Shown piece by piece: positions 3,228 through 14,025 of a stretch of 64,000 nucleotides of DNA. A program made the position numbers and the translations under genes. Origin of the DNA: a virus. Below the pieces are notes generated by a model. That model saw nothing but the letters and a program-made list of their open reading frames with translations. It did no database searches and was not told the DNA's origin. The first letter of the stretch is position 1, and the number at the start of each line of letters is the position of its first letter. The DNA lies in the IMG/VR virus record IMGVR_UViG_3300043411_002794, positions 96,001-160,000 of that record. One strand, 5' to 3'.

Positions 3228-4562
3228 TTAGACCCTGTAGAGCAGTACGTTGAACGCATGCAACAACGCTGTTCCAGTCGTGAGATCAGAAACCTTGATT
3301 GCGATCGTGTACGCGTTGCTGGTGAGATTCAATCCTGTGATCAAACCGCCGGATGGCGACGCCGTCTGCTCCACCATAACCACCGTGTTGCTGATCCGCG
3401 TGATGCGTATCGTGCAGTACAGGTTGTAATCGTAGGCGGACGGTGAAATTACGTTTCCGTCAAAAAACAACTGTAAACCGAGGCCGTCCGCAATGACGGA
3501 GAACATGGCGAAGATTTCAAGCGTGTCGCCGTTCGTCGCCAACGTACCGGCGGGCATGGAATACGAGGCCAGCGTATCGTAGGTGTTGCTGCCGGTGGTC
3601 GTGGTAAGCCCGCCGGAGCTGACCGTCGTATGGATCACTGTCGGATTCCCGGTTGGTCCCGTCGGACCAGTGGGTCCGCTGGGGCCGCCGGGTGTGCCGC
3701 TGGCTCCGGTGGGCCCCGTCGGGCCGGTGGCTCCGGTAAAGCCGCTAGGCGAGCCGCTGGCGCCTGTCGGGCCGGTGGGTCCAGTCGGCCCTGTGACGCC
3801 GTCGGGACCGGTTGGTCCCGTTTCGCCGACACCTGTGGGTCCCGTGACGCCGGTTGGACCGGTGGGTCCGGTAACTCCGGTTGGCCCGCTGGGGCCGCCC
3901 GGAGTTCCGCTGGCACCGGTGGATCCTGTCGGCCCTGTCGGCCCTGTCGGCCCCGTTTCGCCGACACCGGTCGGCCCAGACGCACCAGAAGACCCTGTTG
4001 GGCCTGTGGCGCCTGACGGCCCTGTCGGTCCCGTAACGCCGACACCGGTCGGCCCAGATGCACCAGAAGGCCCTGTCGGGCCTGTGGGTCCGGTGGCACC
4101 GGTGACGCCGCGAGGTCCCGTGGGCCCCGTTTCGCCGACACCGGTGGGTCCCGTTGGGCCGGTGGCTCCGGTAAAGCCGCTAGGCGAGCCGCTGGCGCCT
4201 GTCGGGCCGGTTGGACCTGTGTCGCCTGTCGGTCCCGTGCTGCCTGTTACACCGACGCCCGTGGGCCCTGATGCCCCACTGGGTCCGGTTGGGCCGGTTG
4301 CTCCCGAATATCCCGTCCCCACAACGCCGCGGGCGCCGGTGCCGCCCGTAGGCCCGCTCGGGCCGGTGCTGCCTGTGGATCCGCGTGGTCCCGTCGGCCC
4401 CGTTGGGCCGGTTTCTCCTGTTCCCGTCGGCCCGACGGGGCCAGTGGCGCCTGTCGGGCCGGTGCTGCCCGTGAACCCGCTCGGCGAGCCGCTTGGTCCC
4501 GTAGGTCCTGTTTCGCCGCGATAGCCGCGTGGGCCGGTTGGTCCTGTGAATCCGCAAGTCAT
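3228..4562 (-). CDS. Collagen-like fibre protein 1 (GPT-type repeats plus about 140-aa beta-rich C-terminal head), 444 aa
   Basis: About 300 aa of G-X-T/G-P-T triplets from residue 4, then a beta-strand-rich domain. Architecture resembles Bacillus BclA. Confidence 0.9.
3721..4211. repeat. Exact 56-nt direct repeat (3721-3776 and 4156-4211) within collagen gene 1
   Basis: Both copies read gggccggtggctccggtaaagccgctaggcgagccgctggcgcctgtcgggccggt. Confidence 0.9.
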
Positions 4563-4597
4563 GGCGTCCGTGCTCCAAGTGGAAAGCGGGATTCTAC

Positions 4598-5161
4598 CTA
4601 AACCAGCAAAGTGTCCCTAGTGATTTCGGTCGAGTACTGAAAGCGATTGAAATCCTCGGCAAAGTGTTGCACGACGCGACATTTTGCTTCCGGATCTTCG
4701 TAGTAACCGTTGATCGGTTCGTGCCTAGTCTTATTCAACACGGGTAATGCTTGCTCTTCGGTCATTAAGCCGATGCGTCGCAGGGACTGTTCGAGTGTTT
4801 CCAGGCGAAGCAATCCGTACGGTTCCGGCACCTGACGAATCCACCAACTGGCCGGCCGAAAAAACTCGCCCAGTGTCGGTAACTCTTCCAAAAAATCCAT
4901 AAAACGAACACGTGAAATCAATTCCCGCGGTCCGCGTAACTTTTCTTCGTGGGCACGATCCCAAAGTCGATGCTGCCACAACGAAACGGCGCGTGCATAT
5001 GGGTTTCTGGTCGTCACATACACGTGCCCACGAAACGTCGCCGGGAGATTTGCGTCGTGTTGTGCTCCGCTGTACTTGTCGACGAAGTGGTGCCGCAGGC
5101 TGGTGCTGCCGGTTTTCGGCGGCGTGATAATTGCCCAACCGGCAGTCATGTCGATCAACAT
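4598..5161 (-). CDS. Sulfotransferase (PAPS-dependent, family 2-like), 187 aa
   Basis: 5'-PSB motif PPKTGSTS and 3'-PB motif RNPYARAVS; C-terminal LNKT...YY...V...FAEDF..F.Y pattern. Confidence 0.85.
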
Positions 5162-11956: not shown

Positions 11957-13045
11957 TCAGCCCGGCTTCGGGGCGTTCCTGGTTCCAGCATGGGCTTCCG
12001 ACAGGCCGCGGCGCGGCACGCTGGAGGTGTGAATGAACTGCTTTTGGGAGTTCCACTTGCGCAGTCCGTAGCCGTTTTGCCAGAGCTGCTCGCCGATCAT
12101 GTAATCGCCGCCGTTGTGCTGCAGCTTGAGGTCCGGCACGTCGCAGGCCCGCATGGCTTCCACCGACATCGCCCAGAACCCGCCGGCCGCAAAGTGAATC
12201 TTGTTGCCGTTCGGCGACGGGTTGCCCTTCATGTCGCGGAACGGGCGGGACTTGTACCAGGGCCGTTCCCGGATGAATTGTCCTTGGCCGGGCTTCAGTT
12301 CCCAGATCCGGTGGTCGCCGTAGAGGTGTTTCCCTTCCTGGTGTCCGTCGATGATGACACTCGTGAGCTTGTGCAGCCAGAGTCGGTCGCGATCGGCGAT
12401 GGAGTCGTCGTCGAACCAGAGCAGCCACTTGGTAGTGATCGGGCAGCTGTTGTCCCAGAACATCTCTCGCATGACCGGATACTTCTTGTCGTTGCTCCGG
12501 TGGCGGTAGTGCTTGGTGATGACGCCGCGGTCCACCAGGCCTTCGATAAAGCGGACGCTCTCTTCGCAGAGCTCGTTGGAGCCGATCCGGAGATCCAGGC
12601 GGCCGTCGGGCACGGTGCTGACGATCGACTCTACGCACCGGCGATGCATCTGGGCAAACTTTGCCGGACCATACAGTAACGCGAAAACCGTGTACTTGCC
12701 GCCGATTGTCGGATGGTCGTACAGCTCGCCGGTAGCGATCGCGGCAGCTGCGGTTGTCTTGATCTGCCCTTCCAGTGGTCCGACGATCTGCAGCGGCTGT
12801 GCAACGGATGCTGCGGGCGGCTGTGCGGCGGACGACGCGGGCGGCGGAGGCGCTTCGGTCACGTCAAACAGACCAAACGGATTGGCGACTTGAAGAGGAC
12901 GCGCTGCAGGTTGAGAGGGAAGCGGCACGACGAGTCCTCCGGAGCCGCCTTCGATCGTCACCGTCACTTTGGCACCGTCCCCGCGGACGTAAGAAAAGCC
13001 GTTGGTGGAGATGGGCGGGTAATGGTCGGGAGCGGGGATAGGCAT
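11957..13045 (-). CDS. GT-A fold (family 2-like) glycosyltransferase with Pro/Ala-rich N-terminal extension, about 362 aa
   Basis: TVFALLYG...RCVESI, WLLWFDDDS (DXD motif), GGFWAM, HNGGD. ATG at 13045 follows the GT9 stop. Confidence 0.7.
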   Translation of the reverse strand: MPIPAPDHYPPISTNGFSYVRGDGAKVTVTIEGGSGGLVVPLPSQPAARPLQVANPFGLFDVTEAPPPPASSAAQPPAASVAQPLQIVGPLEGQIKTTAAAAIATGELYDHPTIGGKYTVFALLYGPAKFAQMHRRCVESIVSTVPDGRLDLRIGSNELCEESVRFIEGLVDRGVITKHYRHRSNDKKYPVMREMFWDNSCPITTKWLLWFDDDSIADRDRLWLHKLTSVIIDGHQEGKHLYGDHRIWELKPGQGQFIRERPWYKSRPFRDMKGNPSPNGNKIHFAAGGFWAMSVEAMRACDVPDLKLQHNGGDYMIGEQLWQNGYGLRKWNSQKQFIHTSSVPRRGLSEAHAGTRNAPKPG

Positions 13046-13053
13046 CCGTGCCT

Positions 13054-14025
13054 CTAAAGCGAAAGTCCTGGATACGGCGGAAGCGTTCCGTCGAAATAAT
13101 AACTCAGGACTCCGTTTATGACCATCTCCGGCGTAATGATATCCATGCACCGCGGGACGGCCTGACCAGGCTTAATCACGGGCATGTGACAGAGTAACTT
13201 GTCGCCATGCAAGGGGATCGTCTTGTTCTTCCAACACCCGAATGATTTGCAACAGCTGAGCAGCCCGATGGTGTGCAAGAAACGATGCGGGACTTTCAGT
13301 TTCTCCGGACAACCGAGGCCCTTGTTCTCTAAGTAGTATCCTTCCCACCAAGGCGCCTCGCGGCCGCCGGCAACAACAACACACGGGCGTTCCAGTGCGG
13401 CGGCCATATGCATCGCAGCAGTCACGCCGCAGACTACTCCCTCGGCATTAGCGATGATGCGGATCATATCTCGCAGGTTCGTCTTGCCGACAAGATCAAG
13501 CGTGCCGGTCAGCGGGGCGTGATCGTGTCCATGATCTCGTGCTCCCAGCTGCACGACCTGGATCCCGTAACGAGCCAGCAGATCGACGGTCGTCTGCCAG
13601 TAGCGGTAGTCCCAGATCTTCACCGTGGCGTCACTCTTCCCGCCTGCCACGACGACCCAATACCGGCCCGCGATCAATGGTGCTGCTTGCTCGTCGGGCG
13701 ATAGGTGCAGATCCGGTTTCGGCTCGGTGACCGGCACGTGGATACGTGTCTGCCGCTCGAAGTTGTAATGGAACTCGCCGAGGAAGTGGACGGTCTCGCG
13801 GTTCTGTCGCTTGATGCCGGACTGATAGCACAGTTTGATCTGCCGTACTTCTTCGGTCTCCGGGATCTTGGTGATATGCGGGTTGTGTCGCCAGATGTCC
13901 TTGCAGCTGGTCTTAACGTCCACCTGCAGGTCCGGGAACGCCCGTTTGAGATCTCGCACGAAGCCGGTCATCACGACAATGTCGCCCGGGCTGCGGCCGT
14001 GCAGCAATCGATATTTTTTAGCCAC
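13054..14025 (-). CDS. Glycosyltransferase family 9 (heptosyltransferase-like), 323 aa
   Basis: SPGDIVV, DIWRHNPHI, PDLHLS, VVQLG, DLVGKTNLRD, TAAMHMAAALERPCVVV, and a Cys-rich C-terminus ending CMDIITPEMV. Confidence 0.88.
   Translation of the reverse strand: MAKKYRLLHGRSPGDIVVMTGFVRDLKRAFPDLQVDVKTSCKDIWRHNPHITKIPETEEVRQIKLCYQSGIKRQNRETVHFLGEFHYNFERQTRIHVPVTEPKPDLHLSPDEQAAPLIAGRYWVVVAGGKSDATVKIWDYRYWQTTVDLLARYGIQVVQLGARDHGHDHAPLTGTLDLVGKTNLRDMIRIIANAEGVVCGVTAAMHMAAALERPCVVVAGGREAPWWEGYYLENKGLGCPEKLKVPHRFLHTIGLLSCCKSFGCWKNKTIPLHGDKLLCHMPVIKPGQAVPRCMDIITPEMVINGVLSYYFDGTLPPYPGLSL

Follow-up and report, generated by a model that had tools for sequence, protein, structure and literature searches.

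Candidate glycosylation and sulfation of collagen-like tail fibres encoded in the tail operon of an uncultured phage

Glycosylation of collagen-like repeats by an enzyme encoded next to its substrate is described for Clostridioides difficile, where the gene of the GT-A-type glycosyltransferase SgtA lies directly ahead of bclA3 and the enzyme links O-GlcNAc to Thr residues in the GPT repeats (PMC7157674). Here we analyse a phage locus with a related layout, which lies in a 64,000-nucleotide (nt) stretch of DNA (positions 96001-160000 of the IMG/VR virus record IMGVR_UViG_3300043411_002794; hereafter the window) and in which three collagen-like fibre genes are accompanied by five glycosyltransferase (GT) genes and a sulfotransferase (ST) gene. 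The source record is 192,194 bp long, with a CheckV completeness of 93%. The locus resembles the SgtA-BclA3 pair and Bacillus BclA in that Thr-rich GPT collagen-like repeats are encoded beside a GT. It differs in that the phage proteins are of tail-fibre types, made in the cytoplasm of the infected cell, and in that five GT families and an ST are present.

To our knowledge, phage-encoded glycosylation of virions has been reported so far for few phages only, notably mycobacteriophages. In the work of Freeman et al. (2023), as cited in PMC12619734, mycobacteriophage glycans are located on the C-termini of capsid and tail-tube subunits. As far as that citation goes, the mycobacteriophage GTs modify the phages' own structural proteins, and the likeness lies in phage GT genes next to structural genes; the candidate substrates here are, in contrast, collagen-like fibres, and the enzyme set is larger and includes a GT9 and an ST. 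Giant viruses encode the glycosylation of their own surface structures (Mimivirus fibrils, chlorovirus capsid; PMC9614988). They share with the present phage a cytoplasmic multi-GT machinery of their own and sugar-tailoring enzymes, but they are eukaryotic viruses. The collagen of Mimivirus is modified on hydroxylysine, whereas the collagen regions of all three fibres in the window contain no Lys (count of 0), which excludes hydroxylysine glycosylation of the animal or Mimivirus style. We know of no sulfation in the glycosylation of giant-virus fibrils.

The packing of three fibre genes with five GT genes and an ST gene at the end of the tail operon suggests that the phage probably sugar-coats its own fibres. 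With about even confidence, we propose a two-layer system in which the tail-fibre proteins would be glycosylated, and their glycan sulfated, in the cytoplasm as they are made. In the first layer, the GT9 and a GT2-fold enzyme, which are mostly one fusion protein in relatives, would act first; this layer is a constant of the tail module across a large clade of uncultured ~200-kb myoviruses. In the second layer, the GT25, GT32, GT4 and ST enzymes, translationally coupled to the fibre genes, would lengthen the glycan and finish it with a sulfate cap. The donors would be sugar nucleotides and 3'-phosphoadenosine-5'-phosphosulfate (PAPS) of the host, perhaps tailored by a second cluster of the phage that encodes a DegT aminotransferase, a methyltransferase and further GTs. 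As acceptors we predict the fibres, through Thr in the GPT repeats, Ser/Thr in the Gly-rich heads, or both, and adhesion, shielding or host-surface mimicry may be the benefit; the order in which the enzymes act is equally a prediction. We favour this proposal because of the coupling within a late operon, the interleaved gene order kept in relatives, the migration of GT25, GT32 and ST together with a fibre head in one contig (L112), and the GPT precedent in C. difficile (PMC7157674).

Table 1. Features of the fibre and glycosyltransferase block, in the order of transcription, and upstream tail markers (window coordinates).
Feature	Position	Strand	Basis
Tail sheath, 932 aa	40059-42857	-	phrog_279 1e-11
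Baseplate_J protein	26030-27661	-	
GT9-family glycosyltransferase, 323 aa	13054-14025	-	Pfam Glyco_transf_9 (PF01075) E=8e-14, 52 bits vs cut-off 22
GT-A/GT2-fold glycosyltransferase	11957-13045 (ORF open to 13150)	-	Atlas model fold, WFDDDS motif
Ig-like (Big_1) protein, 98 aa	11585-11881	-	Pfam Big_1 E=1e-10
p171, 171 aa	11050-11565	-	Position conserved in relatives; AlphaFold2 (AF2) model
Collagen-like fibre 3, 631 aa	9155-11050	-	PHROG tail-fibre match 1e-12; triplet analysis
Collagen-like fibre 2, 527 aa	7533-9116	-	Pfam Collagen E=4.5e-5; PHROG tail fibre 4.5e-17
GT25-family glycosyltransferase	6764-7552	-	Pfam Glyco_transf_25 (PF01755) E=2e-16, 61 bits; FEDD motif
GT32-type glycosyltransferase (DXD sugar-binding region)	6270-6875	-	Pfam Gly_transf_sug (PF04488) E=2e-13, 51.5 bits; LDTDF motif
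GT4 (GT-B, group 1) glycosyltransferase	5155-6279	-	Pfam Glycos_transf_1 (PF00534, 48 bits)/Glyco_trans_1_4, E ~1e-13; E-x7-E motif
Small PAPS-type sulfotransferase, 187 aa	4598-5161	-	51-sequence family profile; PAPS-binding motifs
Collagen-like fibre 1, 444 aa	3228-4562	-	Pfam Collagen E=2e-28; phrog_5073 tail fibre 1e-64
p105, 105 aa	2908-3225	-	Closes the fibre block; no Pfam match

The block comprises twelve co-oriented genes (2908-14025, minus strand) at the distal end of the tail operon, downstream of the baseplate J and sheath genes on the same strand (Table 1); from ~45 kb down to 2.9 kb of the window, the long open reading frames (ORFs) are nearly all on the minus strand. The genes are transcribed in the order GT9, GT2-fold, Big_1, p171, fibre 3, fibre 2, GT25, GT32, GT4, ST, fibre 1 and p105, and their junctions range from an overlap of 112 nt to a gap of 75 nt, with several start/stop overlaps. 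The original prediction, which had described three collagen genes interleaved with GT and ST genes at the distal end of a tail operon, agrees with these results: all the elements it named were recovered on the minus strand where it had placed them, the late tail-operon position was upheld by the baseplate J and sheath genes upstream on the same strand and by the tight junctions, and the enzyme identities were confirmed by Pfam for GT9, GT25, GT32 and GT4, by fold for GT2 and by a family profile for the ST. No signal peptides or transmembrane segments were predicted in the fibres or the enzymes. A scan of positions 1-16000 for promoter-like (9 vs 4.1 ± 2.1 in shuffled sequence) and terminator-like elements (12 vs 13.6) gave numbers not clearly above expectation.

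The three fibres share a Thr-rich collagen-like part and differ in what follows it. Fibre 1 consists of a GPT-rich collagen region of 304 amino acids (aa), with 95 G-X-Y triplets of which 37 are GPT and with Thr at 59 of the 95 Y positions, and of a 137-aa C-terminal domain into which the phrog_5073 match extends. As to a C1q/TNF-like fold, a sequence search of this domain against the PDB gave only chance-level matches. Fibre 2 carries ~147 aa of G-X-Y repeats and then a 376-aa Gly-rich head; its gene directly precedes that of GT25 and overlaps it by 20 nt. In fibre 3, ~120 aa of G-X-Y repeats are followed by a 507-aa Gly/Thr-rich head. Counting runs of at least four triplets, we found 95, 45 and 31 G-X-Y triplets in the three fibres, interrupted by G-X-G or G-X-X-X-G; GPT is the commonest triplet (37, 13 and 10), and Thr makes up 19-23% of the residues of the collagen regions. 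The PHROG families matched by the three fibres (phrog_5073, phrog_6320 and phrog_819) are all annotated as tail fibre or tail.

The enzymes are soluble, and their catalytic motifs (DXD, E-x7-E and the PAPS-binding motifs) are intact. GT25 homologues with 53-86% identity keep GT32 as their downstream neighbour. The overlap of the two ORFs in the window (6764-6875, 112 nt) is longer than in the relatives L111, L112 and L113 (4-40 nt), and may reflect a C-terminal extension or an assembly indel. The ST gene, which overlaps that of GT4 by 7 nt, encodes a protein that as a single sequence stays under the Pfam cut-off (17.2 vs 22 bits). When a profile of 51 family sequences was used, all 20 matches listed were sulfotransferases, among them 3rnl (1.2e-8) and heparan sulfate 3-O-sulfotransferases (2e-3 to 4e-3). 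The motifs PPKTGSTS and RNPYARAVS, which correspond to the 5'-phosphosulfate loop (PKxGTT/S) and the 3'-phosphate motif (RxPxxRxxS), are invariant among close relatives, and K16, R52, P54, R57 and S60 are conserved in at least 90% of the 51 sequences. The family has ~1,050 cluster representatives, which are mostly viral in Atlas; some of the family alignments gave no usable pattern, and some no confirmed locus.

The AF2 model of GT9 (pLDDT 94.7) has a clear GT9 GT-B fold. Its VIA Z scores were 24.3 to the GT9 3tov, 22.6 to WaaF, 21.4 to TibC and 20.2 to WaaC, with, for TibC, a root-mean-square deviation of 2.9 over 262 residues and best Foldseek TM values of 0.67-0.69. The protein heptosyltransferase TibC has an iron finger, inserted in the C-lobe and formed by Cys 339/342/358/370, and an N-terminal beta-barrel of residues 1-97 (PMC4358343). 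The phage GT9 shares with the TibC/AAH enzymes the WaaC-related GT-B core, and its four invariant Cys near the C terminus (258, 264, 279 and 293) may correspond to the finger of TibC. It differs from them in the absence of the N-terminal beta-barrel, as the whole 323-aa model aligns to TibC 93-394 only, and in its genomic setting, which offers no adjacent autotransporter and places it next to a GT2-fold enzyme, Big_1, p171 and collagen-like fibres; moreover, WaaF and an uncharacterised GT9 (Z 24.3) score as well as TibC or better. TibC was also absent from the sequence matches of the phage GT9 (E up to 0.01) and from its profile matches (E up to 1). The GT2-fold ORF, whose true start is probably near 13045, gave no Pfam match. 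In structural superposition, its Atlas model matched GT2 domains and viral clusters of GT9+GT2 fusions with TM values of 0.76-0.86, and the protein, which has an N-terminal Pro/Ala-rich linker, is fused to GT9 in most relatives.

Single-sequence searches of IMG/VR with GT9 and with the ST returned no close relatives; a profile scan identified GT9 relatives on 174 IMG/VR contigs. More than 630 proteins are related to the GT9, many of them encoded on contigs of ~100-260 kb. The mapping covered 80 loci, 67 of which were distinct. Their common order runs from the tail genes p488-p527-p255-p325 through variable fibre genes to GT9, sometimes Big, then p171 and p105. In 53 of these 67 distinct loci, GT9 and a GT2 domain form one fusion protein, and p171 follows GT9(+GT2) in 54. 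Of 37 loci with a complete upstream flank, 17 contained collagen-like ORFs, and 27 of the 37 whole records had them somewhere; the remaining loci have fibres of the Collar or Gp10_C type. The variable fibre regions of the relatives (including L007, L029-L043 and L050) also encode GT2, TPR-fused GT2, MptE-like (PF01973), GT-D-like, GT15-type, GT4, Mannosyl_trans3, FkbM-type and other methyltransferase proteins. We take the MptE-like and GT-D-like families to include protein glycosyltransferases, and PF01973 the Maf-type flagellin glycosyltransferases. As a possible identity of the clade we considered the 'Moraphages' (PMC12619734), which have four core GT groups but predicted hosts among the Bacteroidota; no link was established.

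The cassette GT25-GT32-GT4-ST is interleaved with collagens in a subset of these phages. In L111 (50-70% amino acid identity), the GT9-GT2 fusion, Big and p171 are followed by two collagens, GT25, GT32, GT4, ST, a collagen and p105, and the order collagen-collagen-GT25-GT32-GT4-ST-collagen recurs in L113 and L087-L089 (70-80% identity). GT25 lies between fibres in L199, which has the order fibre-GT25-fibre-p105. Homologues of the fibre-2 head precede GT25 in L111, L112 and L199. The 175-kb contig L112 encodes a GT25 (53% identity), a GT32 (63%), an ST of another family (Sulfotransfer_1) and a GT2. These genes lie away from any recognisable tail module, in a neighbourhood with NAMPT, Thg1 and phosphatase genes. 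Its GT25-GT32 set lies directly behind a 414-aa protein that is homologous to the Gly-rich heads of fibres 2 and 3 and has no collagen repeats, so that the Gly-rich head, instead of or besides the collagen helix, may be the acceptor. Fibre-like proteins stand beside GT or ST genes in two further genomic contexts (L112 and L107). The relative G002 has, ~100 kb away from its tail locus, a Thr-rich collagen-like gene with a methyltransferase gene on one side and, on the other, genes for an ST of the window's family and a GDP-sugar dehydratase. Co-occurrence of GTs and collagens in relatives had been set as a test beforehand, and its outcome was mixed: the interleaved order was kept in the lineages named above, but GT9+GT2 proved independent of collagen.

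Several observations weigh against the proposal that the fibres are the substrate. Ten of the 37 relatives lack a collagen gene anywhere in the record, yet they keep GT9+GT2, which makes this pair a constant of the tail module independent of collagen. L004, an equally close relative (~60-69% identity), carries GT9, GT2, Big and p171 with three collagens in a row and p105 but not the cassette, which is therefore dispensable for fibre assembly. The ST family occurs in 8 of the 37 relatives, never at the tail locus, and in 5 of these 8 without any collagen gene; since collagen is present in 3 of 8 ST-positive and in 24 of 29 ST-negative records, ST does not track collagen. Collagen genes did not adjoin GT25 in any of 80 more distant viral loci, 4 of which have an adjacent ST. 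Accessory GT and methyltransferase ORFs are only about twice as common in collagen-positive loci (~7/21 vs ~13/79, a rough count from family tallies). The GT9 fold ties between the lipopolysaccharide (LPS) heptosyltransferases WaaF/WaaC and the protein heptosyltransferase TibC. The families GT9, GT25, GT4 and GT2 also build the cores of LPS and lipooligosaccharide (LOS), and since fibre regions recombine frequently, part of the adjacency could be due to the site of insertion. Judged from these genomes, the link to collagen is looser than first thought.

The enzymes might instead remodel the host envelope, acting at the cytoplasmic face of the membrane on intermediates of the LPS/LOS core, the capsule or exopolysaccharide, so as to mask receptors against superinfection or keep progeny off debris, while the fibre region would merely tolerate insertions. 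We consider this rather unlikely. Heptosyltransferase-type GT9, GT25, GT4 and GT2 are the classic core families, as the Pfam names and the best solved matches WaaF/WaaC indicate, and the known core sets (WaaC/WaaF GT9, GT25 LOS galactosyltransferases, WaaG-type GT4) are likewise clusters of such CAZy-type families with soluble or peripheral cytoplasmic enzymes. The cassette is accessory, being absent in L004, and relatives of ST and GT25 occur in collagen-free phages, in clusters away from the tail genes that also hold rhamnosyltransferase, GT17-like, GT2, methyltransferase and sugar dehydratase genes. Two phage-like contigs of the lineage (L199 and L200) were binned with metagenome-assembled genomes of Aquaspirillum and Alcaligenaceae; this betaproteobacterial binning, a weak hint at the host, fits an LPS-bearing cell. 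The phage genes differ from LPS/LOS sets, however, in that they lie in a tail-fibre operon without Kdo, lipid A or export genes and in that GT9 is fused to GT2. Pfam scans of the cluster showed no flippase, polymerase, ligase or initiating phosphoglycosyltransferase, and a late, tightly coupled structural operon would leave little time for the export of envelope glycans before lysis. The GT9+GT2 fusion occupies one fixed position in the tail module across the 174 contigs, and the cassette moved with a fibre-head gene in L112. Bacterial genome contigs contain 503 relatives of the GT9 clade, mostly in Planctomycetota, Verrucomicrobiota and Acidobacteriota and some on multi-megabase chromosomes; 4 of the best 80 such loci are phage-like. 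The large neighbours annotated in these loci (seven, from L201-L278) are Ser/Thr-kinase-WD40, AAA_35-WD40, RHS-repeat and Ig-domain proteins, and none of the seven is an LPS-core gene, which weakens the reading of GT9 as an LPS heptosyltransferase without removing it. The kinase-WD40 and AAA_35-WD40 proteins (1,000-1,450 aa) belong to a single homologous group with 14 members. The bacterial GT9 relatives often adjoin such proteins, RHS-repeat proteins or Ig-domain proteins, in some cases with a GT2 relative close by, and may represent an uncharacterised bacterial GT9 system.

Virion proteins could also be glycosylated elsewhere than on the collagen helices, with only the Gly-rich heads, other fibre types, p171 or tail and capsid proteins as targets and the collagen link a coincidence of this lineage. 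GT9+GT2 does occur in relatives with Collar or Gp10_C fibres instead of collagen, p171 accompanies GT9 in 54 of 67 loci, and the neighbour of GT25-GT32-ST in L112 lacks collagen repeats. We nevertheless regard this as quite unlikely, given that collagen-bearing genes surround the cassette or GT25 in four lineages (the window, L111, L113/L087 and L199) and that GPT repeats are a proven substrate of O-glycosylation elsewhere (PMC7157674). Modification of phage DNA (hypermodified bases) or of a small molecule is highly improbable. Phage GTs are best known for DNA glucosylation (reviewed in PMC12619734), and the enzymes of the window are cytoplasmic; their genes, however, lie in a tail-fibre operon and not among nucleotide-metabolism genes, and the ST profile matches glycan sulfotransferases. 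A set of six enzymes, with five GT families and a carbohydrate-type sulfotransferase, would be unusual for DNA modification.

Searches of the whole phage genome for APS kinase, NTP_transferase, Epimerase-family and SIS_2 genes were negative; the host must therefore supply PAPS and the basic sugar nucleotides. The search for a heptose pathway likewise gave neither its SIS_2 nor its nucleotidyltransferase gene in the phage genome. The absence of genes for the synthesis of nucleotide sugars and PAPS from the window, as first described, was confirmed, but a second sugar-tailoring cluster does lie outside the window, near the right end of the record (G000:C1 ~174,500-184,300; L198 2345-12147). It encodes a DegT/DnrJ/EryC1 sugar aminotransferase (5.5e-55), a GT2-like protein, a Methyltransf_24/O-methyltransferase, a GH130-like protein and another GT4. 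Its aminotransferase and methyltransferase recall the tailoring of anthrose-type sugars.

Three small proteins complete the block. Big_1 homologues are found at the matching position in L004, L008, L009, L111 and L199. The p171 protein has a conserved domain of ~130 aa and a Ser/Asp-rich N-terminal tail found in this phage alone, and the stop of its gene overlaps the start of fibre 3. Its AF2 model (pLDDT 83.8 overall, >90 for residues ~45-160) shows a beta-sheet and a long helix; the fold had no match in the PDB (Foldseek) or BFVD, and the best Z in a wide VIA search was 5.9. In some relatives, p171 carries a fused C-terminal extension of 150-200 aa. Homologues of p105 follow the last fibre gene or p171 in L004, L005, L087, L111, L199 and many IMG/VR loci. 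From their positions, p171 may be a fibre adaptor or assembly factor and p105 a fibre chaperone.

Some further features of the surroundings were recorded. Between the tail genes and GT9, two small Cys-rich ORFs (14035-15124; 127 and 240 aa) without a family match occupy the place that a VWA-domain protein takes in L004. More distant ST homologues adjoin sugar dehydratases or GT1 genes, and in three non-tail glycan clusters (L106 of G034, L108 of G015 and L109 of G013) two different ST families stand side by side, along with GT17-like, rhamnosyltransferase, GT2 and methyltransferase genes. Pfam and PHROG searches with ten downstream tail genes gave nearly no matches. Among GenBank phages, the region had no DNA match and GT9 no tblastn match, and the sheath reached just 26-27% identity, to Vibrio phages D181/D148/D69 and Salmonella phage Arash. 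The AT-rich 14-mer GGTAATTAGAAACC occurs three times in the window (24750-24763, 45689-45702 and 57763-57776; 0.14 expected) and not once inside the fibre/GT block.

Our full-text literature searches gave no direct precedent for glycosylation of phage collagen, for phage sulfotransferases or for sulfated phage particles, and no published description of a five-family GT set with an ST linked to collagen fibres or of a tail-module GT9-GT2 fusion. It is a tentative further possibility that the GT9-GT2 fusion is a standard tail-assembly component that glycosylates fibres throughout the clade, and that some members, including this phage, add a sulfated oligosaccharide on collagen-like fibres. No sulfated glycoprotein would then have been described before on the particle of a bacteriophage, and the system would be a phage counterpart of the glycosylation of BclA-type proteins and of giant-virus fibrils. 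If the host envelope were remodelled instead, the locus would represent an unusual late receptor modification, encoded in the tail operon of a lytic jumbo-type phage.

In conclusion, the locus offers a compact, testable set of enzymes and substrates with which collagen-like proteins could be glycosylated and sulfated in bacteria. If the proposed decoration of the fibres is true, the GT9-GT2 fusion would represent a new and widespread class of tail-assembly enzymes (174 viral contigs). The recognition of hosts, the adhesion of phages to polysaccharide matrices, their resistance to proteases and their evasion of immunity or defence would then hinge on a glycan layer that sequence-based predictions of receptor binding overlook.

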